Shown piece by piece: positions 196-20,102 of a stretch of 52,176 nucleotides of DNA (the first letter of the stretch is position 1; the number at the start of each line of letters is the position of its first letter). Where the stretch lies: IMG/VR virus record IMGVR_UViG_3300036823_000134, positions 1 through 52,176 of that record; one strand, 5' to 3'. The notes under the pieces were generated by a model. The model was given only the letters and a program-made list of their open reading frames with translations. It was not told the DNA's origin and did not search any database. A program made the translations under genes and the position numbers. Source of the DNA: a virus (Duplodnaviria; Caudoviricetes).

Positions 196-1659
196 GTGCG
201 GGTGGACAAGTCAACGTTCTTCCACGAGATCGGATACCGCCCGCACCTTCAGCAGTTGTGGTTTCACACGTCTGAGGCGCGTTTTAGGGTGGCATGTTGC
301 GGACGTCGCTTTGGTAAGAGTACCATGGCGGCGCGTGACTTGGAGCCCGAATTGTTTCTGCCGGATAGAAGATTCTGGATTATCGGCCCTACTTACGATT
401 TGGGCGAGAAAGAGTTTAGAGTTGTCTGGGACGACCTGATGGTCAAGAAGGGCTTGGCTGCAGATAAGCGGATCAAGAAAAGCTACAGTAAAGCTCAGGG
501 GAACATGTTTATTGAGTTCCCGTGGCACACACGCTTGGAAGTCAGGTCTGCAGACCACCCGAGCAACCTTGTTGGAGAAGCACTCGATGGGGCCATTATT
601 TCCGAGGCGGCCAAGCAGAAGGAAGACACCTGGAAGCGCTACATTCGCCCCGCACTAAGCGACAAGCGGGGGTTTGCTACGTTTCCTACTACGCCTGAGG
701 GGTTCAATTGGCTGTACGACCTATGGCAGTTAGGTCAGGACCCTGACGAAAAGCTGTATGAAAGCTGGTGTTTTCCTAGCTGGGCGAACACAGCAATTTA
801 CCCCCAAGGGTTCAATGACCCTGAAATCCAAGATATGTATCGGACCACCTCGACTGAATGGTTCGACCAAGAGATCGGCGCAAAGTTTACGAGCTTTGTC
901 GGTAAGATTTACGCCGAGTTCGACGAAACCAGGCATGTGCAGAAGCTTGACTTTAACCCTTTGTGGCCGAACTACCTCGCCATTGACTGGGGATTTACAA
1001 ACCCTTCGGCTTGGATCGAGTTTCAAGTCACGCCTAATGACGAAGTACGTATCTGGCGAGAGCATTACCAGTCAGGCTGGACTGTAAGTCGGCACTGTGA
1101 ATATATGAAGACGCGCGAACAGCCGTCCGGTTACCATTTGGATTTGGCCTTTGGTGATAGTGCAGACCCTGCGGCCGCTGCTGATGTGTCTAACTTCCTT
1201 GTAGGATGCTGGACTGACCCGATGGCGAAGGATAATTGGCGCCAGGGAACCGATTTAGTCAAGTCGTTCCTGAGAAACCGCGACGGTGACGGAACAGAAC
1301 CCAGGTTCTTTGTCGACCATAAGTGCAAGCATGTTATCAAGGAGTTCAACAACTACAGGTCGAAGGAAGCCATTAAGGGCAACAACGTACCTGAGTTGGG
1401 CCAGAACGCACAGAACCACGCGATGGATGCAATCCGCTACGGGTTGATGCATGTCTTTGTACTAGGTGCGAACGTGCACTTGAGTGATGTGTACAATCAG
1501 AACGAGTTGTACGGGATTGCAGAAAGCAACTACCGAGAAGTAGTTGACGCTAATAACATAGGCAGCCCGGACAAATCATCTGGGGTGTCCTTGATGTCTC
1601 TTAACGACATGTCTGGATTCGGTGGGGATACTCTCTTCAACGCTGGGACGCGGTTCTGA
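196..1659 (+). CDS. terL: Terminase large subunit
   Basis: Walker A GRRFGKS, Walker B-like IISEAA, PTTPEG coupling motif, RNase H-like nuclease domain (AIDWG...NHAMDAIRY); RBS GAGGAGG before GTG. Confidence 0.95.
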   Translation: MRVDKSTFFHEIGYRPHLQQLWFHTSEARFRVACCGRRFGKSTMAARDLEPELFLPDRRFWIIGPTYDLGEKEFRVVWDDLMVKKGLAADKRIKKSYSKAQGNMFIEFPWHTRLEVRSADHPSNLVGEALDGAIISEAAKQKEDTWKRYIRPALSDKRGFATFPTTPEGFNWLYDLWQLGQDPDEKLYESWCFPSWANTAIYPQGFNDPEIQDMYRTTSTEWFDQEIGAKFTSFVGKIYAEFDETRHVQKLDFNPLWPNYLAIDWGFTNPSAWIEFQVTPNDEVRIWREHYQSGWTVSRHCEYMKTREQPSGYHLDLAFGDSADPAAAADVSNFLVGCWTDPMAKDNWRQGTDLVKSFLRNRDGDGTEPRFFVDHKCKHVIKEFNNYRSKEAIKGNNVPELGQNAQNHAMDAIRYGLMHVFVLGANVHLSDVYNQNELYGIAESNYREVVDANNIGSPDKSSGVSLMSLNDMSGFGGDTLFNAGTRF

Positions 1660-2342
1660 TGGCGCGCCATGTGAAGCCACATACGGTTAAAGCCCACACT
1701 GTGCAGGGCCACATGGTGAGTACACACACGGTTCGAGCGCATACTGTACCAGCACATTCCGTTGCGACGCACACGGTCAAGGCACATACTGTGAAGGGGC
1801 ATGAGGTTCCTGCTTCCTTCATTCCAACGTACGAAGTGCCAGCTTTTATTGTTCCCGCGCACACTGTGCGAGCTCATGTTGTTGCGGCGCACGAAGTTAA
1901 GGCTTACGTGCAGCCGGCACATATGGTACGTGCACATATGGTACGAGCTCACAGCGATCGCGCCCACTTTGTTCGGCAGCACACTGTTCGAGCGCACACC
2001 ACTAAGCTTGGCACGTTCGTCTCAGCGTATGTGGAATCTGGCCATATGGTCAGTGCGCATATGGTCCGCGCACATATGGTTCGTGCTCACATGGTCAGAA
2101 CACATATAGTGCGTGCACACTTCGAACCTGCACACCGCGTTCCTGCATTCCGTGTGTCGGAGCATAAAGTTCAGGCACATACTGTTAAGGCACATACTAT
2201 ACCCGCACACTTTGTTAGCACTTACAGTGTTCCTGCGCATACTGTACGCGCACACACAGTTGCAGCACACACTGTCCGAGCATTTACCGTTCCTGCACAC
2301 TTTGTACCTTCTTACTTCGTTGCAGCATACACGACCAAGTGA
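1659..2342 (+). CDS. His-rich pentapeptide-repeat protein (x-A-H-x-V)n
   Basis: 45 pentads with one 6-residue break (KLGTFV) at mid-protein; start overlaps the terL stop (TGATG). Confidence 0.85.
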   Translation: MARHVKPHTVKAHTVQGHMVSTHTVRAHTVPAHSVATHTVKAHTVKGHEVPASFIPTYEVPAFIVPAHTVRAHVVAAHEVKAYVQPAHMVRAHMVRAHSDRAHFVRQHTVRAHTTKLGTFVSAYVESGHMVSAHMVRAHMVRAHMVRTHIVRAHFEPAHRVPAFRVSEHKVQAHTVKAHTIPAHFVSTYSVPAHTVRAHTVAAHTVRAFTVPAHFVPSYFVAAYTTK

Positions 2343-2354
2343 GGATTCGACATA

Positions 2355-2588
2355 ATGGCATTTACTGCTAAGATGGCTATCTGGGACATGGCAGACGCTG
2401 GAGATAACCAGACGCGTCTTCGATTCAATGCACCTTACAACGACAAGGACGGCAATAGGATCAACGAGGAGTGGGCTAAGTATACTCCTGCTCTAAACCT
2501 CGACATGACCGTAATGAACGAAGTTGTTGAAGCTCAGGCACTGGAGATCGGCGACTCGTTCACGGTTAGGTTCGACAAGGAGAACTGA
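2355..2588 (+). CDS. Hypothetical protein
   Basis: RBS GAGGA, 77 aa, co-oriented within the operon. Confidence 0.75.
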   Translation: MAFTAKMAIWDMADAGDNQTRLRFNAPYNDKDGNRINEEWAKYTPALNLDMTVMNEVVEAQALEIGDSFTVRFDKEN

Positions 2589-2689
2589 TGCCTTGGTGGG
2601 CCTGGCTGTTGATAGGACTTTTCGGTGGAGCTGGAATAGTCCTCGCAATTATGTATAAGGGTCTGATAGATTTGCAGAGGAGGCTCTAG
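2588..2689 (+). CDS. Small membrane protein (33 aa, MPWWAWLLIGLFGGAGIVLAIMYKGLIDLQRRL)
   Basis: Not in the ORF track; start and stop overlap both neighbours; one hydrophobic helix. Confidence 0.7.
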   Translation: MPWWAWLLIGLFGGAGIVLAIMYKGLIDLQRRL

Positions 2690-2916
2690 TGCCACTCATT
2701 ACCGCAGCTTCAGCGAACTGGAAGAAGAGGCGCACGCTCACGTACGTTGACGTCAACGGCAAGACACATAACGTCGTACAGACTGCAGCACCTTCCGCTG
2801 GCGCTGCTACATTCCGGATCGCAGAGCGTCTGGGCACGACAGCTCGTGTGCTCACTGGCATTGCTTCGGCAACGACTCTCGCCAGTACCAACGCTTACCA
2901 GCTGAGGCAGGACTAA
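2689..2916 (+). CDS. Hypothetical protein
   Basis: RBS GAGGAGG; coupled to the portal start. Confidence 0.75.
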   Translation: MPLITAASANWKKRRTLTYVDVNGKTHNVVQTAAPSAGAATFRIAERLGTTARVLTGIASATTLASTNAYQLRQD

Positions 2917-4499
2917 TGACTAACGCTCGTGTGGGTTTTGTGCGAAGCATTGCAGGAACCGGTCTGCGCAAACCGACTACGAGCGTTGAGTTGCGTTCTC
3001 TGACTGAAGCACTTGCGAGCAAAGATATTATCGATATCGATCCTGATACCGGTGCTATCCTTACGACAGAGCGAATTAGTCTTGCCGAGCCGAAGAGCAA
3101 GCCGAATCTGTCTGAACTTGGTTCTGTTAGCCCTTCTCCGTTTACTGCATGGCTTCGACGTGAATACAACCCCGAACTTCGAGATCTTCAGGGGCTTCGC
3201 AAGTTCGACGAAATGTGGCGATCGGACTCAACTGTACGTGGCACTGTACGCGCGATGATGACACCTATTCTGACTGCTCGCTGGTTTATCAAGCCTGCGA
3301 GCGATTCAGCGCAGGATAAGAAGATTGCCGACTTCGTCTATTGGAACTTGACGGAGGGTATGACAATCTCGTGGGCGCAGATTGTCTATGAGGCACTCCT
3401 GATGCTGAAGTACGGCTACTACATGTTTGAGAAGGTTTACACGTCTTCGAAGTCGACACCGTTTGGCACTCGTACATGTTGGCAGAAGTTTGCTCCTCGA
3501 CACCCAATGGATGTTGTTGAATGGCACTGGGATGGAAACGGCGGACCTGAGTCCGTCGATGTTTACAACCCGGTACAGCTCACATCTGGCGGTGTCGATA
3601 ACACGACGAAGAATATTCCAATCGACAAGTTGGCAGTATTCACGTTCGATAAGGAAGCTGGAGACATGACAGGTGTCTCGCTTCTTCGTTCAGCATATAA
3701 GCCTTGGTACTACAAGACGCAACTGGAGAAGATCGATGCTATCCAGAAAGAGCGTCACGGCATCGGTGTCCCGATCATTACGTTGCCTATCGGGTTCAAC
3801 AACGACGACAAGAGTCTTGCGGAAGCAATTGGACGTAACCTGCGAACCAATGAACGTGCGCATATCGTTCTTCCGCCTGGTTGGACAATCGAGTTTGCGA
3901 AGCTCGAAGGTCAGCTAACCGATGCTCTGAAGTCAATTGAGTACCACTCTACCGAGATCGCTAAGAATATCCTCGCGACGTTCATCGAGAACCGTGCAGG
4001 CTCTCCCGATGCTAGTCAGGACCTATTCTTGAAGTCCTGCCGGTACGTAGCTGCGGTGGTTGAACAAGTGTTCAACATTTACTGCATCCCGCAGCTAGTG
4101 AATTTCAACTGGTTGGGGATCAAGAGGTTTCCGCAGCTGAAGGCTCGACGTATTGGCGAAGTCATCGACCAGCGCACGTTCAGTTTTGGTGTTAGGAACA
4201 TGGTAGGCGCTGGAATCATTCGGCCAGACGATCCGCTAGAGGAACTGGTCCGCGATGAGATGGATCTGACTCCGATTGATGAAGAAACACTTCGTATGGT
4301 TGCTGCTAACTACAACCGGAACGAAGAACCAGTTCCTCCGCAGGAAGATCCCTCCAAGGGAGTTCCTCCAGGAAATCAGAACGCCGGACCTCCGACGGCG
4401 CCTACTCCGTCACCGGCTCAGCTACCTCGACAATCAGCCAAGCCGCCAGTGAATGCTGGCAACAAGAGTATTGGTACCGACAGGAGTGGTGGAAAGTGA
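2916..4499 (+). CDS. Portal protein (DUF935 / Mu gp29-like)
   Basis: Position after terminase; G-Y-x-x-F-E-K motif, G-x-S-L-L-R-S-A-Y, ERHGIGVP; Pro-rich C-terminal tail. Confidence 0.9.
   Translation: MTNARVGFVRSIAGTGLRKPTTSVELRSLTEALASKDIIDIDPDTGAILTTERISLAEPKSKPNLSELGSVSPSPFTAWLRREYNPELRDLQGLRKFDEMWRSDSTVRGTVRAMMTPILTARWFIKPASDSAQDKKIADFVYWNLTEGMTISWAQIVYEALLMLKYGYYMFEKVYTSSKSTPFGTRTCWQKFAPRHPMDVVEWHWDGNGGPESVDVYNPVQLTSGGVDNTTKNIPIDKLAVFTFDKEAGDMTGVSLLRSAYKPWYYKTQLEKIDAIQKERHGIGVPIITLPIGFNNDDKSLAEAIGRNLRTNERAHIVLPPGWTIEFAKLEGQLTDALKSIEYHSTEIAKNILATFIENRAGSPDASQDLFLKSCRYVAAVVEQVFNIYCIPQLVNFNWLGIKRFPQLKARRIGEVIDQRTFSFGVRNMVGAGIIRPDDPLEELVRDEMDLTPIDEETLRMVAANYNRNEEPVPPQEDPSKGVPPGNQNAGPPTAPTPSPAQLPRQSAKPPVNAGNKSIGTDRSGGK
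2927..2940 (+). repeat. Dispersed 14-bp motif copy
   Basis: TCGTGTGGGTTTTG inside the 5' end of the portal gene. Confidence 0.8.
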
Positions 4500-5359
4500 C
4501 GGCTCTCTTCGAGTTGGGGCGGCAAGATTTCCTTGCTGGGGCGATCGCTGCCGCTTCCGACACACTACGTGTAGCGCTGCTGAACCTGTCTACAGGCGCG
4601 GCGGGTGCTAAGTCGATCTCAGGCGCAACCAACGCTACTCCTATTGTTGTTACGACGACTTCAGCGCATGGCTTCGCCAATGGTGACGTCGTCTACATCG
4701 ATGGTGTTGCAGGCAACGTTGCAACGAATGGCATCTGGACTATCTCTAGTGCTTCTGGTTCGAACTTCACACTGGTCGATCCTGTAACAGGTGCACAGCC
4801 TGTGGTGGGCTCAGGTGCATACACTTCAGGTGGCGTTGCTGTAAATCTGGGTCCGTCGATCAGCTTCTGGAGTTCGTACTCTGCACTGCTAGTAGGAACG
4901 GCGGGTGCTTTGGCATCAGTCACTACTACACAGGGCGTACTAGATGCTTCAGACCAGACCTACACCAACGTTAGCGGCTCGCAAGTGCAGGCGATTGGTA
5001 TCTACAAAGATACTGGTACGGCAGGCACTTCCAGGATGATCGCGCTGATCGCAGGCAAGTTCGTTGTGACGTGCGATACTCAGGCCGCTTCTTCGGCGAC
5101 GACGATTGCTGTCGAACCACTGAAGGCAGGGATCCCGAGTGGAACAACGCTTGTCTTTTCCAACGGTGCTTCGGCCACTACGTCCGCCGCTGCGAATGCT
5201 GGTGACCGATCGCTCACTGTTTCGGCGCTGGTTGCAACTGTCTCTGCAGGGAGTCGTGCTCTCGCTCCTGCGACGGGTTCTGGTCTTCCTGTCACACCAA
5301 ACGGCGGCAACATCACAATCCAGTGGGACAACGGTCCGAACAAGATCTTCAAGCTCTGA
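4496..5359 (+). CDS. Virion structural protein with an inserted FCCH-like beta domain
   Basis: Ends in GLPVTPNGGNITIQWDNGPNKIFKL, typical of actinophage minor virion proteins; ISGATNATPIVVTTTSAHGFANGDVV resembles E1 FCCH-like domains. Confidence 0.65.
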   Translation: MTALFELGRQDFLAGAIAAASDTLRVALLNLSTGAAGAKSISGATNATPIVVTTTSAHGFANGDVVYIDGVAGNVATNGIWTISSASGSNFTLVDPVTGAQPVVGSGAYTSGGVAVNLGPSISFWSSYSALLVGTAGALASVTTTQGVLDASDQTYTNVSGSQVQAIGIYKDTGTAGTSRMIALIAGKFVVTCDTQAASSATTIAVEPLKAGIPSGTTLVFSNGASATTSAAANAGDRSLTVSALVATVSAGSRALAPATGSGLPVTPNGGNITIQWDNGPNKIFKL

Positions 5360-5372
5360 CTGAGGCGGCGAA

Positions 5373-8300
5373 GTGGTCGCGATCGACTGGGTAGTCCCTT
5401 GGGACTATGTTCAGGGTGTGGACACCTTTCCTAAGACGGTGTCCATACCTTCTGCGCTAGTAGGACACAAGTTGTTCTTCCTGGCTGCAGGTTTCGCGAT
5501 TGCTGATGCTTCAAGCTTTACACGACTTGACGCTTATCCTGGTCACGGCAATCAAGATGTTGGAATTTCAGAACTAGTAGCTGCTGGTGGTGAGACGTCA
5601 GTCACCTTCAGTCTTAATGGTAGTGGCGCAAGTTGCTCAGGTGTTATCTTTAGTGTAGGCTCTGGGACTTCGTTTGTGGCGTTTAGTAATAACGATGGTG
5701 GTGCTACAGTTGATGTCACAACCGACTTCCAGATCACTCCGACAACAGATCTTACTGCCACAGGTGATAGTATTCTACTATCTGTCGCATCGGTGAGTTC
5801 GGCTTCCGCCTTCTCGACAGCTAACAGACTTAGGCAGCATGGACCGTACGCCAGGATTCTGCGAGAAGGCGGAAACCAAAGCTTTAGCAGTGAAAAGTTA
5901 ATCTTCCAATGTGCTATTGCTGATGTCAATGCTACAACTAGTTATCCCAGGTCACTTGCTGCAGGTCATTGGCGTGCGACTACCGACTGGCTTGCATCAG
6001 GTGACTGTTTTATCACTCAGGCACTTCTTACTGATACTAGTGGCGTGCCCACAGTATCAGTAGCACCTAATGCGATTGTAGAGGAAAACAGTCTTCCAGG
6101 TACAGACAATGGTAACTACTTCCTGGGAATAGCTGGCACATCACCCAACGTTTCTGGATATACTGATAAGTGTACTTACCAGGCAGGCGATACGGTTAAC
6201 TTCCAAGTCTTCACCGAAGACACCGGAACAGGTCAAGTAGAGATCTATCGTCGAGGTTTTTACAGTCGTCAGTCCTTTGGTGCACGCAGTGTGCTAGGCA
6301 ACCAGGACGGTTATCTAACAGTAACTCCTACAGTGCAGCCTGCACCTACGTTTGATAGTACTACAGGTATGAACTCCTGTGCATGGACAACTAATGCAAG
6401 CTGGACCATACCTTCAGATACGCCTTCAGGTCTATACTATGTCGTTTATCGACGTACAGATATGACAGCTGCAGCATCAGGACACTTTATCGTTAGGCCT
6501 AGTAGTTTTGCAGATAAGTTCGTTTACCTGATCAGTGATGCAACGCACCAGATGTACAATCTCTGGAGTGATCCTGGTGACTTTGGGCCGCGCGATATTG
6601 GCGGCGTATATTCAACTAACTCGCACGACGTATATCAGGCCGGCACGGATCTTGCATTTTCGCAGTTTACAAATCGAGGTTATCAAGTATCGTTTGATCG
6701 ACCATATACTACGCAGTCTAATAATGATACTACGTATATCAACGACGTATGTGTAGGACAGATCTGCTTCTTCGAAGCGCAGGGCTACGATATAGTCTAC
6801 GCATCCGATATGGATTGCATGACTGACGAGCACGTCTTCGACGATGCCAAGGCTATCATCTTTGGCGGACACCATGAATATGTCCATGAGAAGATGTACA
6901 ATGCTTATCGCAACGCTCAGGCTAACGGTGTAGACTTTGCCGATCTTTCTAGTAATACAGCACTCTGGCGTATAGGATTTGATCCGGCAGACACAAGTTT
7001 TCGTAACCCTTTCTGCTACAAGGATACGGGTACTATCACAACAGGTGCAGGTTTCACAGGCGATGGATTTACTCCTGCTGGCGTACTCGACACTGACTGG
7101 ACAGGTACTTGGCGAGATTCACGTTCACTAAATCCCGACATACGACGTGAGAACGAACTGTTCGGACAGATCTTTGTAGCTTCAGGTCCTGCACTGCAGG
7201 TAGCGCAGATCGATCAAGCGTTCCAGAATTCGCCTGTCTGGCGTAACTCTTCTGACATCCTTGCCTTAGGTCCGAGTGCTACTTATTCTAGTACAACGAA
7301 TATGGAAGGATTCGAGCTAGAAAGTCGCGACGGTTCTCTGGGTGAACCTACTAACATAGTTGATCTTTGGCGGCACTTGTACACAGGTCTTCACTTCCTG
7401 ACTAATGATGATGGTTCTACGTACAATGATATAGGCGATCTAGAACTTGGCTGGACACTGCACCGTGTTGATAGTACTGAAGCAAATGGCATTCCTGCAC
7501 CATTCGTCTTCAACGGTGGCGCTTGGCGTTGTACGTGGAGTTTAACGCTGTGGCAGTCAGGAAGGCCTTCTGGGTCTGTTACTGACCTGAATATGCAAAA
7601 TGCGTTCTTGTCTATATTCAATGATATAGGCATGGTTCCTGTTACTCTTCAGTCAATGAAGCCTGGTGAAGATCCTGACGTTACAGATCCCAGTATCGGT
7701 GCTCCTGGTCCAGGTAGAGCTGACGTAGCAAAGGCGTACGGACTATCTGTACCTGATCAGACTATTAATGCGGTAGGTATCTCAAGCTCCGAATCGTTCG
7801 AGAATGTCACTGTCGCGTCTGGCTCGACGAGCCTAACTCCCAGAGGCGTGATTAGTGATGAACGATTCGGAACCGGTACCCTGACTACAAGTGTTACCGT
7901 ACCTCCAGTAGGGATTGTTTCTTCTGGCTCCGTAGGCAACGCTACCTGCACTAGTGTAGTCTTCGTCGAGACTCAAGGAATTCCTTCAGCGGCAGCACTT
8001 GGTAGTCAGGGTACCGCACTATCTACGTCTGTGACACCTCCAGGCTTGAACTTTTCTGGTTATCCGGGCGCTGCGGAGGTTGTGCCTATAATTTCCTCCA
8101 CAAGTGTTTCGACAGGTGAACTAGTAAGTTCTGCCGATTCTGTATTTGGTGTAAACACCATATCACCGGCAGGAGTGAAGAGTAGTGAAGAGTTTGGCGC
8201 GTCACAGACAACAACCCAGAGTTTCATTCAACCATCAGGATCGACATCCAGTGAACAAACTGGATCTCCAACACGCTCAACCACTACAGGAATCCTTCCC

Positions 8301-9476
8301 GGAGGGGTTGGAAGCGTTGAGGGGTTTGGAAACGCTTCGGCTACTGGTAGCAACATCATATCCCCAGGTGGACTCCCAGATGCTGCTCGATTCGGAAACG
8401 GAACTGTTGCAAACCTTGCTGAAGCTCAGCCGGTCGGTATCACGTCACAGGAAACCGTCGGCGCCTCGACGGTTGTGGCGGGGAGTATTGGAATACTTAC
8501 GACAGGTTTGGCAGAACCTGAAACTGTAGGTATGCCTACGGTCGTAGTAGGCCTGGCTACTATAGATCTTGCGGGAGTTGTATCTAGGGAACAACTGGGT
8601 AACACCAGCCTCACGACAAGTATTACATCCAGTGTTAATACAATTCCTACTAGTGCAGAAGTGGGAACGCCAAATGTCTCTGCAAATGTTTCAATCTCCC
8701 CTACCGGAGGACCTTCTTCCGGAGAGGCATTCGGATCTGCCTCTCTGGATGCTGCAGTGGCAGCAGTGGCAGGAAGCGTTACGAGCGAACAAGCGACAGG
8801 CACGCCGCAGGTCGGATCAAACATACGGTTCACCGTTCCAAGCAATGTTGGACCATTCGAGAGCGTGGGCACGCCTAGTGTCAGCATTGGCGCCGTTACG
8901 ATCATTCCAGCTGGGATTAGATCTGAAAATCGTTTCGGTGTCTCATCTGCAACCCCTAGCAGTGTATCCGTTCAGTTGGTCGGAATCACCAGTGATGCAG
9001 CCACTGGCGCCGTCTCGGTCGCAGTACTCGGAGTACTTATCCAACCAGTTGGCATTGTTTCCGAAGAGCATACTGGAAATTCCCGTACAATCCCGGGTAG
9101 CCTCACGATTGCCACTAACGGTATCGATTCAGGCGAGGGATTCTCTGTCACCGACGTTGAACTCACTAGATCAACCCCTGTTGAATCTGTGCCGTCGGGA
9201 GAGCAGCTGGGTAATGTAACCCTAGGCCGTGTGGGTTCTGCTAGTAGTATTAGTTCCGCTGAAGCGTTTGGCATTCCAGCTGTTCATACAGGAGCGGCAT
9301 TCATTGTACCTCCGGGTATATCTTCGTCGATACAGGTAGGGTCCAGCCGCATAAGTTTGGCTATTTCATTCGTGCGCGTCGAAGCTGATGGTGCAGTAGT
9401 CTTGTTCGGTGCAGATATGGGTGAGTTGTTCTATAATGCTGTACCTGTCCTGCTCTGGGAAGGTGAACCAGAATGA
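5373..9476 (+). CDS. Large virion appendage/fibre-like protein with an N,N-dimethylformamidase beta-subunit-like (DUF6605-like) domain and a C-terminal repeat stalk
   Basis: Motifs ENSLPGT, IYRRGFY, PSDTPSGLY, HFIVR, THQMYN, VSFDRPY, GYDIVY, GHHEY; about 20 G-I-x-S-x-E-x-x-G repeats of ~24-26 aa after ~7755. Confidence 0.7.
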   Translation: MVAIDWVVPWDYVQGVDTFPKTVSIPSALVGHKLFFLAAGFAIADASSFTRLDAYPGHGNQDVGISELVAAGGETSVTFSLNGSGASCSGVIFSVGSGTSFVAFSNNDGGATVDVTTDFQITPTTDLTATGDSILLSVASVSSASAFSTANRLRQHGPYARILREGGNQSFSSEKLIFQCAIADVNATTSYPRSLAAGHWRATTDWLASGDCFITQALLTDTSGVPTVSVAPNAIVEENSLPGTDNGNYFLGIAGTSPNVSGYTDKCTYQAGDTVNFQVFTEDTGTGQVEIYRRGFYSRQSFGARSVLGNQDGYLTVTPTVQPAPTFDSTTGMNSCAWTTNASWTIPSDTPSGLYYVVYRRTDMTAAASGHFIVRPSSFADKFVYLISDATHQMYNLWSDPGDFGPRDIGGVYSTNSHDVYQAGTDLAFSQFTNRGYQVSFDRPYTTQSNNDTTYINDVCVGQICFFEAQGYDIVYASDMDCMTDEHVFDDAKAIIFGGHHEYVHEKMYNAYRNAQANGVDFADLSSNTALWRIGFDPADTSFRNPFCYKDTGTITTGAGFTGDGFTPAGVLDTDWTGTWRDSRSLNPDIRRENELFGQIFVASGPALQVAQIDQAFQNSPVWRNSSDILALGPSATYSSTTNMEGFELESRDGSLGEPTNIVDLWRHLYTGLHFLTNDDGSTYNDIGDLELGWTLHRVDSTEANGIPAPFVFNGGAWRCTWSLTLWQSGRPSGSVTDLNMQNAFLSIFNDIGMVPVTLQSMKPGEDPDVTDPSIGAPGPGRADVAKAYGLSVPDQTINAVGISSSESFENVTVASGSTSLTPRGVISDERFGTGTLTTSVTVPPVGIVSSGSVGNATCTSVVFVETQGIPSAAALGSQGTALSTSVTPPGLNFSGYPGAAEVVPIISSTSVSTGELVSSADSVFGVNTISPAGVKSSEEFGASQTTTQSFIQPSGSTSSEQTGSPTRSTTTGILPGGVGSVEGFGNASATGSNIISPGGLPDAARFGNGTVANLAEAQPVGITSQETVGASTVVAGSIGILTTGLAEPETVGMPTVVVGLATIDLAGVVSREQLGNTSLTTSITSSVNTIPTSAEVGTPNVSANVSISPTGGPSSGEAFGSASLDAAVAAVAGSVTSEQATGTPQVGSNIRFTVPSNVGPFESVGTPSVSIGAVTIIPAGIRSENRFGVSSATPSSVSVQLVGITSDAATGAVSVAVLGVLIQPVGIVSEEHTGNSRTIPGSLTIATNGIDSGEGFSVTDVELTRSTPVESVPSGEQLGNVTLGRVGSASSISSAEAFGIPAVHTGAAFIVPPGISSSIQVGSSRISLAISFVRVEADGAVVLFGADMGELFYNAVPVLLWEGEPE
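7755..9360 (+). repeat. Protein-level tandem repeats (~24-26 aa, GIxSxExFG) forming a stalk
   Basis: e.g. AVGISSSESFE, PRGVISDERFG, PAGVKSSEEFG, PVGITSQETVG, PAGIRSENRFG. Confidence 0.8.
9227..9240 (+). repeat. Dispersed 14-bp motif copy
   Basis: CCGTGTGGGTTCTG. Confidence 0.75.
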
Positions 9477-11376: not shown

Positions 11377-12369
11377 ATGGCGGTTTACAGTCCTTCGGGA
11401 TCTGGGCAGGTCCACATTGATATTCTGCTTACGCAGATTTCGATGCAGTTCCCGTTGAACCGGAACTACGTGGGTCCCAACCTCTTCCCGCAGGTGACGG
11501 TCCAGAAGCAGTCGGACAAGTACGGCATCTTCGATCGTGAGAACTTCAAGCTCGAGGCGCACGACGTCCGTGCTCCTGGTGATATCGCGAACGAGATTCC
11601 TGGTCTGCGGTTCTCCACAGACACGTACTACTGCAACGAGCACGCTCTGCAGATCGCGATCACGGATGAGGAGCGGACTAACGTCGATGCTCCCCTCCAG
11701 CCCGACATTGACGGTACCACTTTGGTGACTGACCGCATCATGTTGGGTCGCGAGAAGAAGATGCATGACTTGGCAACCACAATCGGTAACTATGCATCGG
11801 GCATGTCTGCTAACTACGCGAGTTCGTCTACTTCGCAGTGGAACGACTACGTGAATTCCAACCCCATCCAGGACTTCCGTACGGCGTGCCGTGCTGTTAA
11901 TGCTAACATCTTCATGGATCCTAACCTGGCGATCATTCCCTACCAGGTCATGTCGTTCCTGGAGGATCACCCGGACTTCATCGAGCGCATCAAGTACTCG
12001 GAGAGGGGAGTCATTACGGAAGAGATCATTGCCACAGTGATCAACATCTCCAATATCAAGGTGCCTTCGGTCGGCTTCTCCAGTGCTGGTACGGGTGTTC
12101 CTGTCACCACGTCGTCTGTTGGTTACATGTGGGGCAAGGATGTCATCATCGCATATGTCCCACCATCGGCAGGTCTCCGTCAGATTAGCTTCGGCTACGA
12201 ATTCGTGTGGCCGATCGGCGGCACGCAGCAGCTCGTGGATCGCTGGCGTGAAGAGCAGCGTGTGTCTGACCTCGTCCGGGTTAGGCGACGCTACGACCTG
12301 AAGCTGACTGGCGGCGAAACTGCCAATCAGCAGCTGGTTGGCTTTCTCTACAAGGCAGCGATCGCGTAG
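11377..12369 (+). CDS. Major capsid protein
   Basis: 330 aa, strong RBS AAGGAGGAGG, LFPxVxVxKQSDKY motif of phage capsid E-like proteins; position in the head module. Confidence 0.9.
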   Translation: MAVYSPSGSGQVHIDILLTQISMQFPLNRNYVGPNLFPQVTVQKQSDKYGIFDRENFKLEAHDVRAPGDIANEIPGLRFSTDTYYCNEHALQIAITDEERTNVDAPLQPDIDGTTLVTDRIMLGREKKMHDLATTIGNYASGMSANYASSSTSQWNDYVNSNPIQDFRTACRAVNANIFMDPNLAIIPYQVMSFLEDHPDFIERIKYSERGVITEEIIATVINISNIKVPSVGFSSAGTGVPVTTSSVGYMWGKDVIIAYVPPSAGLRQISFGYEFVWPIGGTQQLVDRWREEQRVSDLVRVRRRYDLKLTGGETANQQLVGFLYKAAIA

Positions 12370-13252: not shown

Positions 13253-13740
13253 GAATCACTCCAGCAGATGTGCAAGCTTGGTGCGAACCCACCAAGCTGC
13301 CTATCGCTGAGCTGGAGGATGTTCTTGATACACAGGTAGAAGCTCAGGTGATGGGCACGCTCGAAGCAGGCTTCGACGTGTCCCCCTGGGTTGATACTGA
13401 TACTACGCCTCGGATCATTCGTAATGCTATCGCAATGAAGTACGCTTCATTGCTTTATGACAGAACGTATTCTGAGGACAGCGACAGTAGTAATGCCTGG
13501 GCAGCACGTCTTGACATGATGTCAGACGACCTGATATCAGGCATGCTCGATGGCAGTGTAACAATTGATGGATTTGTGAGTGCTGAAGAGCATTCTAATC
13601 CTGAGGCATATCCTACCGATCAATCTTCCACACCTATGCCTGAACGTGACGGCTTTCGGAACGTGCAATGGTCTCCGAATCACATTAGTGGCGATCCTTC
13701 CGCGCAGCCTCCTGCCTTTTCAGTAGGGATGAGGTTCTGA
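13249..13740 (+). CDS. Head-to-tail adaptor
   Basis: Position; helical Mu gp36-like pattern ending FSVGMRF. Confidence 0.65.
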   Translation: MRITPADVQAWCEPTKLPIAELEDVLDTQVEAQVMGTLEAGFDVSPWVDTDTTPRIIRNAIAMKYASLLYDRTYSEDSDSSNAWAARLDMMSDDLISGMLDGSVTIDGFVSAEEHSNPEAYPTDQSSTPMPERDGFRNVQWSPNHISGDPSAQPPAFSVGMRF

Positions 13741-14243
13741 TGGCGATCACAGGCATGGTAGTTGATTACGGTTTTCACCCGAGCCCGCTGATTATGGCAG
13801 GCGAGATGGAGACGTTCGGCCTGAACGTTCGATCGTTCCGCGAACCCCTTACGCGTGCTGTCAAGCAGGTCATGATTCCCTCTATCCAACAGAACTTCAA
13901 CGTCGGTGGTCGTCCTGCATGGCAACCTGTCAGTGATGCTACTGACCAGATCAAGTTCGCTGGCGGCTTCAATGGTGGTCCACTGATCCGCACAGGTACT
14001 CTGAAGCGTAATATGGGCTACCAGAGCATGTGGACAATCGACAAGAGTCAGGCAGCGATTCAGGACTTGCCTGAACGTATTGCATACGGAAGTGTACATC
14101 AAGCAGGCTCTTCATCTGGTTCGGGCAGGGGTTCTAACATTCCTGCCCGACCTTTTGCTACGATCCAGGATGCAGACGAAGAACGCATCGAAGATGTCTT
14201 CGCGACCTGGCTCGCCGAAAGAGCGGCGGCTGTCGGATGGTAG
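13740..14243 (+). CDS. Virion morphogenesis / neck protein (Mu gpG-like)
   Basis: GGRPAW, LIRTGTL, YGSVHQAG, IPARPF motifs. Confidence 0.85.
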   Translation: MAITGMVVDYGFHPSPLIMAGEMETFGLNVRSFREPLTRAVKQVMIPSIQQNFNVGGRPAWQPVSDATDQIKFAGGFNGGPLIRTGTLKRNMGYQSMWTIDKSQAAIQDLPERIAYGSVHQAGSSSGSGRGSNIPARPFATIQDADEERIEDVFATWLAERAAAVGW

Positions 14244-16493: not shown

Positions 16494-16738
16494 GGAACGA
16501 ACAGGACATAGGGCCGCTTGTCGAGTATGCTATAAACATTGGACGTACATGTAGAACGTTCCAGTGTCTTCCTTCGGCAGGTGGCTTGCTTGATCAGGAT
16601 GCGCGTGACGTGTTCTTTCTCCAAATCGTAGCGGCAGCTGATAACGAGAAGGCGGAGATCGAACGTAAGGCGAATCAGGAGATGAACCGTGGGCCTGGGA
16701 ACCAGAGAGCTCCTTCTTATCATTCGCGGACAGGATGA
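16457..16738 (+). other. Programmed -1 frameshift (G GGA AAC, 16457-16463) and GT extension ending at 16738
   Basis: The -1 frame is open: KLAERIRQ...CLPSAGGLLDQD...RTG*. Confidence 0.85.
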
Positions 16739-19700
16739 ACTGTCAAAAGTTCTTCGTGGCGTCGGCGGATCGATGGGAACTCTTTCGGCTCAGGCCCAGC
16801 AAGCAGCACAGAAGCAAATGGCCCTTGGCAGCGCCATATCAACCGTAGGTGTTGGTATGGCTGCTGTCGGGGCCATTGGTGTCAAATGGCTCGGTGACGC
16901 GGTAAGTACGGCAAAGACGTTTGACACTGCTATTGCACTAGTCAAGACACAGGTTGACAATGTTAATACTAGTCAGCAGCAGTTGGCAACGGTCTCCAAG
17001 AACGTTGCGAAGAGTATTGCAGCGCCAATCGATCAACTGAACGCTTCGCTGTATGACATCTTCTCTTCGATGGATGTTACAGTTCCACAGTCGCAGCAGA
17101 TCCTCACAGGATTTGCTAAGGCAGCTGTTGCCGGTCAGGTCGATGTGCAGACGGCTGGCCGCGCGACGATTGCAATTCTTAATGCTTGGCATCAACCAGT
17201 CTCAATGCTGAGTCAGGACTTGGACGTCCAGTTCCAGCTGGTGAGAAAGGGTGTTGGTACATACCAAGAATTCGCTCAGTCTATTGGTCAGGCGATTCCG
17301 TCTGCGCAGCGAGCAGGTCAGAGTATCCAGACACTAGCTGGTATGCTAGCGTACTTGACTCGTAACGGTTTGAGTACGTCTATGGCAGCAGCATCTGCAC
17401 AGCGCGCCTTGGATGCATTCTCGAACCCGAAGGTTGTCGATCGCCTCAAGGGTATGGGCGTCGCCGTCCTTAATAATAAGGGCGGCTTCAATGACTTTGG
17501 AGTTGTGATTGACCAGCTACAGAAAAAGCTGGCCAACATGACTGAGCCGCAACGTACTGCCGCCTTGCAGAACCTATTTAAAGGCGCAGGCGGTACGATT
17601 CAGGCGATGCGCTTCTACGACACTGTTACGCAGAGTTCAACAGCTGTAAAACAGTTCACTTCACTAACCGACGACATGAAGAACTCTTCCGGCGCACTCA
17701 ATACAGCGTACGGTACCATGTCGAACACGATGACTGCCAAGACGCAGCTGTTGAACAACCAATATCAGCTTCTGAAGGTCAGTGTAGGTAATGCACTGAT
17801 TCCAATCTTGACAAAACTGATTCCAGTCATCCAGGGCATCTTCAACTGGTGGAATAGTCTGTCGGGTAGTACGCAGAAGATTATCGTTTGGATCGTCGCA
17901 GCAACGTCAGCCTTCTTCTTGGTTGGCGGTGCGATTCTCTTTATCGCTGGCACCTTCATTATGCTGAGTGCGGCTGCTGCATTAGCCGACGTTGCTTTAG
18001 CTCCAATCATTCTTACAGTCATCGCAGTCATCGCAGGCCTGGCACTTCTAGGCGTAGCTGTCTATGAATTGATTACGCACTGGAACCAGGTGGCCAGCGC
18101 TGTCAAGTCCGTGTGGGTTCCGGTAGTCAATGCCTTGGGCGCTGCCTGGAACTGGCTCTGGAAGACAATTCTCAAGCCGTTGTTTACATGGCTCTGGAGT
18201 CAGGTAGGCGGACCGCTTACCTCACTCTGGAACTCCATGAAGAGTGACGTCTCGAGTGCAATGGATGCCATTCACCAAGCTGTGACAGGTTCGATCGGCA
18301 AAGTTGGCCAATTCATCAACGAGATGATAGCCAATGTCACTGACTGGTGGAATACACACTGGCAGCAGATCAAAGGCACTGTTCAGATCTTTGTCAACTT
18401 CTGGACAGCGATCTGGCCTTACATGCGAGGCTTCTTCAGTAACATTCTATACGCGATCATGGCTACGTTCCGCAACGTTTGGGACTTGATCGCAGGCATC
18501 TTCCATGATGTATGGGCAGGCATCGTCGGTGTCATCAAGGGTGCATGGGAAATTATTTCTAGTGTCATTCGCGGTGCGATCGACATTATCGAAGGCATCT
18601 TCGGTCTATTCTTCGATATCATTACTGGCAGGTGGGGGCAAGTATGGGGCGACATTGTTAAGATCCTCAAGGGTGTTTGGGAGATCATCCGAGGTGTAGT
18701 GGCAGGTGGCTGGGAGATCATCGAAGCCATCTTCAATACTGGTGGTAGGATTATTGGTTCGGTCTTTACCTTCGCTTGGCGTGAACTAGTTGTTCTCTTC
18801 AAGGCAGGTGTAGGCCTTGTAGGTAATATCTGGGATGGCTTCGTAGCAGGTTTGGAGCAGGCCTGGAAAACGGTTTGGAATTCAATTATCGACTTCTTCA
18901 AGGGTGTTGCACGGAGTATTGGCACTCTTGTTAAGGACCTCGGCAGTGCGATCGGTTCAGCCTGGAAAAGCGTTGAGAGTGCATTCGTTGCACCCATTAA
19001 CTGGGTGATCGACATTGTCATTAACGGTGCACTGATTCCGTTCTGGAATAGTGTTATGAACTACCTAGGACTCCAAGGTTTGTACATGCACGACTTTTCG
19101 AAGATCGGAGGCCATAAGGAAGGTGGCCTAATTTCAGGTGCGGGCTCCGGAACAAGTGACAGTATTCTTTCCTGGCTATCAGACAAAGAGTTCGTTGTTA
19201 ATGCCAAGTCGACAGCACAGTGGCTACCATTCCTACATGCAATCAACAACGGTATGGCACCCGGATTTGCTCAAGGCGGGCAGGTCAATGCTAATGTTAG
19301 TCAGGTTCTAGGAAGTGCAAGCATCTCCAAACAGGCATCGACAGTTATTAGCGATCCATATAACGCTGTTGCATCTAAGGGCAACATAGCTAACAACTGG
19401 CTAGTAGCTGGTGCGACTTCAGGTTTGAGTCTTGTCAATAGAGCAGCTAACTTCCTCGTAGGGAAGATTACTAAATTCCTTGGCAGTATTGGTAATGCAT
19501 TCCGTGCTACGCCAGGTGGTTCGCCTTCAGCTGCACAGTCGACAATGTATCAGTACGCTTCAACTCTGTTCAGCCGCTACGGATGGGCAGCCCGAGATAA
19601 CCTTCCTGCACTGATTAGGTTGTGGACAAAGGAATCCGGCTGGAACCCGTTTGCAGTCAACAAGAGCTCCGGTGCTTATGGTATCCCACAGGCTCTAGGT

Positions 19701-20102
19701 CATGGACACCCGTACAACTTGGGTGACTGGAAAGCACAGATCCAATGGGGTGAAAATTATATCTCAGGCAGGTATGGTAGTCCACTAGCTGCTTGGGCAC
19801 ATGAAGTATCGCACAACTGGTACGACAAGGGTCTTATGTCAGGCTTTGTGCCAAAGGGCGCTTCGATGATGCTCAATGGTACGGGTGCCGACGAACATCT
19901 CAGCGTTATGACTACTTCGCAGTGGAGTGTTCTGGATAAGCTGGCAAACAGTAGTACAGGACTTATTAACAGTCAGACTGGAAACACATTCAACATTACC
20001 GTTGAAGGTATTAACATCTACACCGATGGTAGTGATCCTGCTGCACTTGGTGCGCAGTTGGGTGAGTACCTAGTTGGAATGGGGGCGAGAGTAACACAAT
20101 GA
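16689..20102 (+). CDS. Tape measure protein with a C-terminal lytic transglycosylase-like domain
   Basis: TP901-type N-terminus, Trp-spaced amphipathic repeats, ESGWNPFAVNKSSGAYGIPQAL...YISGRYGSP. Confidence 0.95.
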   Translation: MGLGTRELLLIIRGQDELSKVLRGVGGSMGTLSAQAQQAAQKQMALGSAISTVGVGMAAVGAIGVKWLGDAVSTAKTFDTAIALVKTQVDNVNTSQQQLATVSKNVAKSIAAPIDQLNASLYDIFSSMDVTVPQSQQILTGFAKAAVAGQVDVQTAGRATIAILNAWHQPVSMLSQDLDVQFQLVRKGVGTYQEFAQSIGQAIPSAQRAGQSIQTLAGMLAYLTRNGLSTSMAAASAQRALDAFSNPKVVDRLKGMGVAVLNNKGGFNDFGVVIDQLQKKLANMTEPQRTAALQNLFKGAGGTIQAMRFYDTVTQSSTAVKQFTSLTDDMKNSSGALNTAYGTMSNTMTAKTQLLNNQYQLLKVSVGNALIPILTKLIPVIQGIFNWWNSLSGSTQKIIVWIVAATSAFFLVGGAILFIAGTFIMLSAAAALADVALAPIILTVIAVIAGLALLGVAVYELITHWNQVASAVKSVWVPVVNALGAAWNWLWKTILKPLFTWLWSQVGGPLTSLWNSMKSDVSSAMDAIHQAVTGSIGKVGQFINEMIANVTDWWNTHWQQIKGTVQIFVNFWTAIWPYMRGFFSNILYAIMATFRNVWDLIAGIFHDVWAGIVGVIKGAWEIISSVIRGAIDIIEGIFGLFFDIITGRWGQVWGDIVKILKGVWEIIRGVVAGGWEIIEAIFNTGGRIIGSVFTFAWRELVVLFKAGVGLVGNIWDGFVAGLEQAWKTVWNSIIDFFKGVARSIGTLVKDLGSAIGSAWKSVESAFVAPINWVIDIVINGALIPFWNSVMNYLGLQGLYMHDFSKIGGHKEGGLISGAGSGTSDSILSWLSDKEFVVNAKSTAQWLPFLHAINNGMAPGFAQGGQVNANVSQVLGSASISKQASTVISDPYNAVASKGNIANNWLVAGATSGLSLVNRAANFLVGKITKFLGSIGNAFRATPGGSPSAAQSTMYQYASTLFSRYGWAARDNLPALIRLWTKESGWNPFAVNKSSGAYGIPQALGHGHPYNLGDWKAQIQWGENYISGRYGSPLAAWAHEVSHNWYDKGLMSGFVPKGASMMLNGTGADEHLSVMTTSQWSVLDKLANSSTGLINSQTGNTFNITVEGINIYTDGSDPAALGAQLGEYLVGMGARVTQ
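18109..18122 (+). repeat. Dispersed 14-bp motif copy
   Basis: CCGTGTGGGTTCCG. Confidence 0.6.

Follow-up and report, generated by a model that had tools for sequence, protein, structure and literature searches.

A histidine-rich pentad-repeat gene downstream of terL in a soil phage: repeat anatomy, purifying selection and a candidate fold-back beta-ribbon

The DNA analysed here, referred to as the window, is a linear virus record of 52,176 bp from IMG/VR (IMGVR_UViG_3300036823_000134) which is estimated to be 86% complete. Profile searches of its proteins showed genes ordered as in siphovirus-like phages, and the source is an uncultured phage of this kind from soil. Among public sequencing runs, one DNA run carried DNA of the window; it stems from a soil metagenome and is probably the source of the record, and no RNA run was listed. 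The subject of this work is an open reading frame (ORF) at positions 1659-2342, termed the pentad gene, whose product of 227 amino acids (aa), P0001, is built of five-residue units (pentads). Its ATG start codon and the TGA stop codon of terL share the sequence ATGA. An initial annotation of the sequence had described the gene as translationally coupled to terL and as lying upstream of the portal gene; the overlap with terL and this position were seen in the sequence and the ORF map. The features of the locus on which the following sections draw are listed below.

196..1659, + strand: terL, large terminase subunit (phrog_2, E 2.1e-34; weak Pfam matches to Terminase_3C and Terminase_6N)
1659..2342, + strand: pentad gene, 227 aa (P0001), 44 x-A-[H/Y/F]-x-V units (ORF, composition, comparison of orthologs)
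1659..2003, + strand: N arm, 23 pentads, residues 1-115 (repeat parse)
1659..1688, + strand: two irregular N-terminal pentads, MARHV KPHTV (ortholog alignment)
1884..2141, + strand: residues 76-161, segment predicted by AlphaFold2 to fold as a beta-hairpin (mean pLDDT 76.8)
2004..2021, + strand: break, residues 116-121 (KLGTFV), within the turn motif HTT[KR]xGxxVSxY (parse, alignment, AlphaFold2 loop T115-T119)
2022..2339, + strand: C arm, 21 pentads, residues 122-226, plus a terminal Lys (repeat parse)

ORF 1659..2342 is the only frame that is open over the entire array. Its translation was parsed into 23 pentads (residues 1-115), the six-residue break KLGTFV (residues 116-121) and 21 pentads (residues 122-226), and 34 of the 227 residues are His, in agreement with the initial annotation. 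The His residues occupy phase 3 modulo 5 between residues 8 and 113 and phase 4 modulo 5 between residues 129 and 214, which corresponds to a single register shift of +1. In the 44 units, position 1 is most often R (13), P (12), K (6), S (6) or A (4); position 2 is Ala in 32 units; position 3 is His in 33, Tyr in six, Phe in three and another residue in two; position 4 is more variable (T16, M7, F6, S3, E3, V3 and others); and position 5 is Val in 36. Overall, P0001 contains 40 Val, 36 Ala, 24 Thr and 16 Phe plus Tyr, G, S, Q and E being scarce, and has a net charge of +18 (R+K minus D+E) and a pI of 11.3. Successive His residues are four positions apart once and otherwise at least five; the combinations HH, HxH and HxxH do not occur.

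Two orthologs were compared with the pentad gene: L006 (3780..4529, 249 aa) and L009 (933..1505, 190 aa), both starting 4 nucleotides (nt) after the stop codon of terL. The phage carrying L006 is related to the window phage with 66% identity in the portal protein and 74% in TerL. The three proteins have net charges of +18, +32 and +28 (His excluded) and pI values of 11.3-12.0, and they contain no Cys, no Trp and almost no Asp. The two orthologs have 44 and 32 His residues, and L006 shares F63, Y83, Y124, F164 and F209 with P0001. At the DNA level, all 44 units of 15 nt are distinct, and together they encode 38 different peptides. Codon positions 1 and 2 of the Ala, His and Val codons hold 1.1-1.4 bits each (44 units), as compared to 0.18-0.20 bits at the wobble positions of the Ala and Val codons; the His wobble position holds 1.0 bit (C/T only). 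Tandem Repeats Finder detected short patches only (eight rows, the longest 79 nt). In pairwise comparisons of the three orthologs in the sense frame, the proportion of synonymous differences (pS) was 0.75-0.82, which is saturated, versus 0.28-0.31 for nonsynonymous differences (pN). This excess of pS over pN argues for a selected gene and, as judged from sequence, ORF 1659-2342 is a genuine gene under purifying selection. The statement of the initial annotation that the DNA repeats are diverged and the protein period is selected thus held. The ORF is probably a late gene, expressed as part of the packaging/portal block.

Alignment of the three orthologs revealed that the turn motif HTT[KR]xGxxVSxY is kept in all of them. 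Its Gly is residue 118 of 227, 130 of 249 and 101 of 190 (0.520, 0.522 and 0.532 of the length), such that a turn which stays central as length varies, a check put forward with the initial annotation, was found at 0.52-0.53 in proteins of 190, 227 and 249 aa. The N and C arms comprise 23 and 21 pentads in P0001, and 25/23 and 19/17 in the orthologs of 249 and 190 aa, respectively. As the N arm equals the C arm plus two pentads in three of three orthologs, the two N-terminal pentads, which read MAT.R..P.PH.V in the orthologs, probably form an overhang lacking a partner in the C arm. Arm lengths differ between orthologs by two, four or six pentads, always an even number. Such steps would fit a beta-strand, in which a repeat of odd period comes back to the same face at every tenth residue only. 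Most likely, the pentad protein reverses once near residues 115-119 and forms a two-stranded ribbon. Comparison and prediction lend moderate support to this fold-back; the hairpin itself and its register are predicted features.

A structural model of the centre of the protein was obtained with AlphaFold2 for residues 76-161 (86 aa), using an alignment of five rows made up of the orthologs and two small proteins, P0002 and P0158, described below. The segment was predicted as a beta-hairpin with a mean predicted local distance difference test score (pLDDT) of 76.8; the five models scored 76.8, 75.9, 58.0, 49.8 and 36.0. Ten strand segments are arranged in mirror symmetry (3-5/79-81 to 23-35/49-61; i+j = 84), the distal ones being H-x-V triplets. 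In protein numbering the register becomes i+j = 234, with a loop at T115-T119. In this register His is placed opposite Val, position 4 opposite position 4, and positions 1 and 2 lie outside the distal ladder, which would account for the Pro residues at position 1 (12 of 44 units). The cross-strand His ladder that had been proposed previously is not supported by this arrangement, in which His does not face His. In a modelled rung, the two His residues of H-x-V / V-x-H would lie diagonally on one face.

Pentads of the same kind were found in other proteins. A profile search returned 16 proteins, 12 of which are tail-completion-like and carry pentads. In nine that were aligned, the pentad stretch lies between the motifs Y..VHEG and RPF. 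These inserts have three to seven pentads per arm, the two arms flanking a basic, Gly-containing loop; in a crude count of runs, the arms were within one pentad of each other in eight of the 12 carriers. Four metagenomic loci contain tail-completion-like carriers as well, and one of them, L017, is the source of one of the 12. A small hairpin motif, V-x-x-[YH]-x-R-x-x-G-T-[YF]-V-x-x-[HY], to which the initial annotation had likened the break, was literally present as VKGYTRKDGTYVKGHTV in the tail-completion-like protein P0167; within the window, a regular-expression search gave no match to it outside the pentad gene. Finally, the small proteins P0002 and P0158 consist of a signal-peptide-like hydrophobic segment (...ASG[AT]VHA/AG) and, after it, two runs of six HTV pentads with a turn between them. 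Both stem from contigs of less than 1 kb.

From the tail-completion inserts and P0002/P0158 a previously undescribed pentad beta-hairpin module was defined. P0001 consists of the same x-[AEG]-[HY]-x-[VI] pentads with a basic residue or Pro at position 1, and it shares with its two orthologs the arms of similar length around a Gly-containing, non-repeat loop. A loop insert in a globular protein must exit and re-enter at one point, which favours a fold-back of the pentads. No Pfam model covers the inserts of the tail completion proteins, and no description of them was found in the literature. The repeat protein and the module are undescribed, rare and selected. In the tail completion protein of the window itself (13740-14243), the alignment shows a Gly/Ser loop, SSSGSGRGSN, at exactly the point that the pentad hairpin occupies in other phages; the window phage encodes its pentads in a separate gene instead of a tail-completion insert. 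P0001 was also considered as a tail completion protein and rejected: it has no core of the type PVDTG..L, Y..VHEG ... RPF and no profile match, and the true one is encoded at 13740..14243.

Credible relatives were chosen because they have the specific consensus and the two-armed layout in common. Several groups of matches were discarded. Using tblastn, P0001 matched eight of 50,697 phage records; the two that were opened, Caulobacter phage RW and Ralstonia phage Sarlave, were spurious, as the matches, which read EVRAA or QVRAA, lie on the opposite strand of an annotated gene of the canonical pentapeptide-repeat type. The antisense strands of pentapeptide-repeat genes (ADLSG, AYLSG) at L001 4611-5681 and L002 4656-5603 read EVRAA/QVRAA likewise. 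Such antisense arrays match the pentad protein in tblastn at E 3e-4 to 2e-3 and represent a general trap for period-5 queries. In a phmmer search of 1.84 billion representatives, 522 matches were obtained at E <= 1e-3. Of 13 inspected among the 150 listed, 12 were uninterrupted arrays of other kinds (SHLIS, HAVDK, AHMVL, AYTVM, AHTAP and others) and one was a canonical AHLEG pentapeptide-repeat protein (P0030); a turn was present in none of the 13, and they were not counted as relatives. A metagenome scan yielded 15 loci, of which six from one sample were dropped as HILQK/AHTAK arrays and four (L016, L019, L021 and L023) as short arrays of doubtful status. Two proteins of the profile search, P0157 and P0162, were dropped as simple arrays. 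A genome-contig match for P0002/P0158 was confined to the signal peptide that a TonB-dependent receptor carries.

In the architecture proposed here, about 21 pentads of the N arm would pair antiparallel with the 21 pentads of the C arm, giving a ribbon of about 35 nm (105 residues x ~0.33 nm) and of about 28 and 38 nm in the orthologs. Each rung would be formed by an H-x-V triplet paired with the H-x-V of the other arm, and the basic or Pro residue together with Ala would serve as two-residue linkers. A role is suggested by the tail completion protein of phage 80alpha. In a preprint on the 80alpha neck structure (bioRxiv 10.1101/2024.12.10.627806), this protein is described as a monomer in the neck lumen, the wall of which is negatively charged; an extended loop caps the DNA end, and a beta-hairpin extends a sheet with three tape-measure N-termini. 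A basic pentad hairpin inserted in a tail completion protein would be expected to run along the DNA or the lumen. The giant protein could then form a rod of about 35 nm that stands free inside the virion and attaches to DNA or to the lumen. This proposal was made because the short module inserts in a tail completion protein whose solved relative touches both the DNA end and the tape measure. From that relationship we infer where in the virion the pentad protein would sit and what it would bind, and the rod is put forward as a best guess that is less likely than not to hold. The explanation as a whole, i.e. a selected late gene encoding a single fold-back ribbon that acts as an internal DNA- or lumen-bound rod, builds on what was observed, namely a gene under selection, its repeat anatomy, arms that match each other and a module that recurs in other proteins. 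It is the best explanation at hand, and the chances that it holds or fails appear about equal. A further step would be to see in these proteins a new class of tandem repeats, namely free-standing pentad beta-ribbons with H-x-V rungs, tuned in length by two pentads per arm and used in the virion near the DNA end or neck as either a short insert or a giant rod; this is possible, though we would sooner expect some part of it to fail.

A number of results weigh against the preferred reading. Only two of the five central-segment models exceeded a pLDDT of 75, the five-row alignment was shallow, and the register was taken from the symmetry of the strand list, without model coordinates. For the full-length protein, AlphaFold2 gave an unusable model (mean pLDDT 35) with strands 20 residues apart, and the model from the ESM Atlas had a pLDDT of 0.43. 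The single fold-back ribbon of the initial annotation is partly supported, by the central turn, the matched arms, the module inserts and the AlphaFold2 model of the centre. Structural modelling, a check proposed at the time, gave a hairpin for the central 86 aa and, for the full length, models so poor that they would also be compatible with disorder or a solenoid. With 44, 48 and 36 pentads in all, the three proteins differ by multiples of four, which would also fit solenoid coils of 20 residues. A test for mirror zonation of the arms was weak: shuffled sequences equalled the score in 532, 54 and 180 of 2000 cases for the three orthologs. P0002 and P0158 look secreted by their sequence, which suggests that the module can work without a DNA partner. 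Further, the pentad gene is missing from 79 of 80 TerL-related viral loci, the one carrier being the L006 contig, and it is not present in L007. Because of this absence it is regarded as an accessory gene, dispensable for this virion type.

Four other explanations were weighed. That the region is not a gene at all, the open frame being a by-product of a 15-nt DNA repeat which functions as packaging or recombination site, is almost certainly wrong. The periodicity of 15 nt does keep other frames partly open, and L006 has an open antisense frame of 269 aa. Yet this openness arises because the codons TTA, CTA and TCA are nearly missing (1, 0 and 1 in the three orthologs). The codon-aligned antisense frame shows similar pS and pN (0.37-0.43 versus 0.39-0.43), pS exceeding pN in the sense frame only; conservation is found at the amino acid level and variation at wobble sites; and the ORF fills the gap from terL to the next gene exactly. 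A free protein that is largely a disordered, polycationic, His-rich chain and becomes ordered on DNA, metal, a virion partner or as cross-beta fibrils is unlikely. The poor scores of both full-length predictions and the very high net positive charge would agree with it, and an isolated two-stranded ribbon of 35 nm would bury little core. The composition, however, is order- and beta-promoting, positions 2, 3 and 5 show strict conservation, the matching of the arms points to a defined pairing, and the central segment was modelled at a pLDDT of 76.8.

Pentapeptide-repeat proteins (PF00805 clan; MfpA, Qnr, HetL) fold as right-handed quadrilateral beta-helices, and their consensus A(D/N)LXX has a central Leu or Phe with a small residue two positions before it. 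A divergent beta-solenoid of this type, with four pentads per 20-residue coil and the break as a one-residue bulge, is very unlikely for P0001. It draws on the period of five, on the small Ala two residues before position 4, on the canonical AHLEG protein P0030 among the phmmer matches, on the strands every 20 residues in the low-confidence full-length model and on the multiples of four in the pentad totals. It conflicts with the lack of a Pfam Pentapeptide match at E <= 1 and a HetL score far below its cut-off (see below), with the best-conserved His and Val (positions 3 and 5) being off the A(D/N)LXX pattern, and with the hairpin predicted for the centre; it gives no reason for a central turn or for the equal split of length changes between the arms, and pentads also form loop inserts which leave and return at one point. 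Distinctly unlikely, too, is a function in chelation of Zn, Ni or Cu, or as a switch near pH 6, which would stiffen, zip or release the ribbon. Here the abundance of His in P0001 and both orthologs, the two His per modelled rung on one face, and the secreted appearance of P0002 and P0158 speak in favour, His-rich metal binders being common in the secreted compartment. The His residues nevertheless lack the combinations HH, HxH and HxxH and are usually spaced by five (minimum four), there is no Cys and almost no Asp, and Tyr or Phe replaces His in nine of 44 units and does so in L006 too at F63, Y83, Y124, F164 and F209, which suits packing of rings rather than ligation. Spacing and Tyr/Phe exchange would thus fit a packing role better than classical chelation.

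The genes around the pentad gene comprise the following.

2355..2588, + strand: separate, non-conserved small gene, 77 aa (C-terminal part of phrog_6978 matched, E 2.1e-9)
2689..2916, + strand: 75-aa ORF kept upstream of the portal gene in relatives (similar ORFs: MPLITAA... in L006, MPLLALN... in L009)
2916..4499, + strand: portal protein (Pfam Portal_Mu, E 4.5e-32; phrog_113, E 5.7e-57)
Between portal and major head protein: head protease (profile searches)
11377..12369: major head protein (profile searches)
13740..14243, + strand: tail completion protein of the window (phrog_26, E 2.4e-15; TIGR01635, 38.8 bits versus a cut-off of 37.65)
16689..20102: tape measure, followed by Dit (profile searches)

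Two small ORFs separate the pentad gene from the downstream portal gene. The first, of 77 aa, lies in the frame of the pentad gene, beyond its TGA and four further codons; the next ATG is found 12 nt past the end of the pentad gene. It covers only the C-terminal 72 of the 284 positions of phrog_6978. Homologs are present in 40 Arthrobacter phage records, as small annotated genes at genome ends and often as gene 1. A read-through fusion of the pentad gene with this ORF was considered and rejected, as the ORF is missing from the ortholog locus L006 and the matches in Arthrobacter phages are small separate genes; in this context, TGA is the stop codon of 13 of 19 genes checked. The second ORF, of 75 aa, matched no family in Pfam or PHROGs. 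Two unusual genes were observed between portal and head protease (4496-9476). One encodes a protein of 287 aa with weak immunoglobulin (Ig)-like or major-tail-like matches, the other a Ser/Thr/Gly/Val-rich repeat protein of 1367 aa that matches a 'minor tail protein' PHROG. The final ~26 codons of the 287-aa ORF (5279-5360) are 77-82% identical in DNA to genes of Mycobacterium and Pseudomonas phages and constitute the sole DNA match of the first 8 kb of the window among 50,697 phage records.

A DNA pattern of the turn motif was found on one other contig among 2.9 million viral contigs. Scans of genome contigs returned no relatives of the orthologs. A 'longer' protein search returned none either; absence in the word-based protein searches is weak evidence, since these also missed the known orthologs. 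In the next TerL clade (65-66% identity; L026-L032, e.g. L026 4992-5716), the gap between terL and portal lacks a pentad gene and contains a gene for a Thr/Gly/Ala-rich, Ig-like-looking protein of 171-174 aa and a gene for 67-69 aa. The interval between terL and portal thus looks like a hot spot of accessory gene content. At L100 (3149-5050), a long insert seems to split the portal gene at the conserved YYKD / LYKIDAIQKERHG site; it starts with Cys, ends with ...FTGN before the portal sequence resumes, and looks like an intein.

If true, the fold-back ribbon would be a repeat architecture that belongs to none of the known classes (fibrous, solenoid, toroid), and a monomeric beta-hairpin of about ten times the usual length. 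It would likewise provide a simple, designable five-residue code, with rungs of His or aromatic residue plus Val and with natural length variants. The data also point to an unnoticed module in a loop of tail completion proteins; as the one solved relative contacts the DNA end and the tape measure through its loop and hairpin, the module could play a part in the way some phages retain or let go of the end of their genome. P0001 is small and is predicted to bind through its own His residues in immobilized metal affinity chromatography, and the length of the rod would be tied to the number of pentads if the ribbon is true.

The initial annotation had named no characterised family resembling the pentad protein, and none was found in Pfam, NCBIfam, PHROGs, PDB or the literature. 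P0001 had no match to a Pfam family at E <= 1 and none in NCBIfam or PHROGs; penta_HetL of NCBIfam scored 12.1 bits versus a cut-off of 260. A sequence search of PDB gave nothing below E 0.1. In structure searches, the best Foldseek match in PDB (E 0.31; template modelling (TM) score 0.16; pore-toxin hairpins) was not significant, VIA-align placed none of 48,161 chains at Z >= 2, no viral model in BFVD matched at E <= 1e-3, and nothing was obtained from the ESM Atlas at >= 0.9. In a full-text literature search, whose coverage excludes subscription journals, no mention of these pentads or of the small hairpin motif was found.

P0001 and the pentapeptide-repeat proteins have in common a tandem period of five residues, a strong tendency to form beta structure and one fixed position taken by a small residue. 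P0001 differs from them in that His/aromatic and Val are conserved as compared to a central Leu/Phe, and in its conserved central reversal with matched arms. When Ala is taken as the small residue of A(D/N)LXX, the 'centre' becomes T16/M7/F6 and others, and His and Val fall on the supposedly exposed positions. Membership in the pentapeptide-repeat families (PF00805 / PF13599 / PF13576) was rejected, as no Pfam profile matches and the conserved positions differ. With His-rich short-repeat proteins (Plasmodium HRP2, the GHHPH repeats of vertebrate histidine-rich glycoprotein, Helicobacter Hpn), P0001 shares short, His-rich tandem repeats. In HRP2, histidine-rich glycoprotein and Hpn, His residues are adjacent or closely spaced, and there is little Val or Thr. 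P0001, in contrast, has one His per five residues, exchanging with Tyr/Phe, in a beta-prone setting rich in Val, Ala and Thr, and is devoid of the clustered His (HH, HxH, HxxH) of metal-binding repeat proteins.

Among two-stranded structures, the arms of HU/IHF are basic beta-ribbons of about 10-15 residues per strand that bind DNA. The predicted ribbon of P0001 would likewise be antiparallel and two-stranded, contains Arg/Lys and Pro, and could lie along DNA; it would have about 105 residues per strand versus about 10-15, and no sequence or fold match to these arms was found. The likeness to beta-pore-forming toxins (lysenin, aerolysin, epsilon toxin), the only solved chains among the top ranks of Foldseek, is one of shape only, an extended hairpin. 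In pore-toxin hairpins, unlike P0001, polar residues alternate with apolar ones, and the hairpins occur solely within oligomeric barrels. Finally, the inserts of tail completion proteins (family of HK97 gp10, lambda gpZ, P2 gpS and 80alpha gp51) have the same consensus as P0001, [AEG]-H-[TQM]-V-[KR], often with Tyr beside the loop; they have three to seven pentads per arm versus 21-23 in P0001, and are embedded in a core that P0001 lacks.

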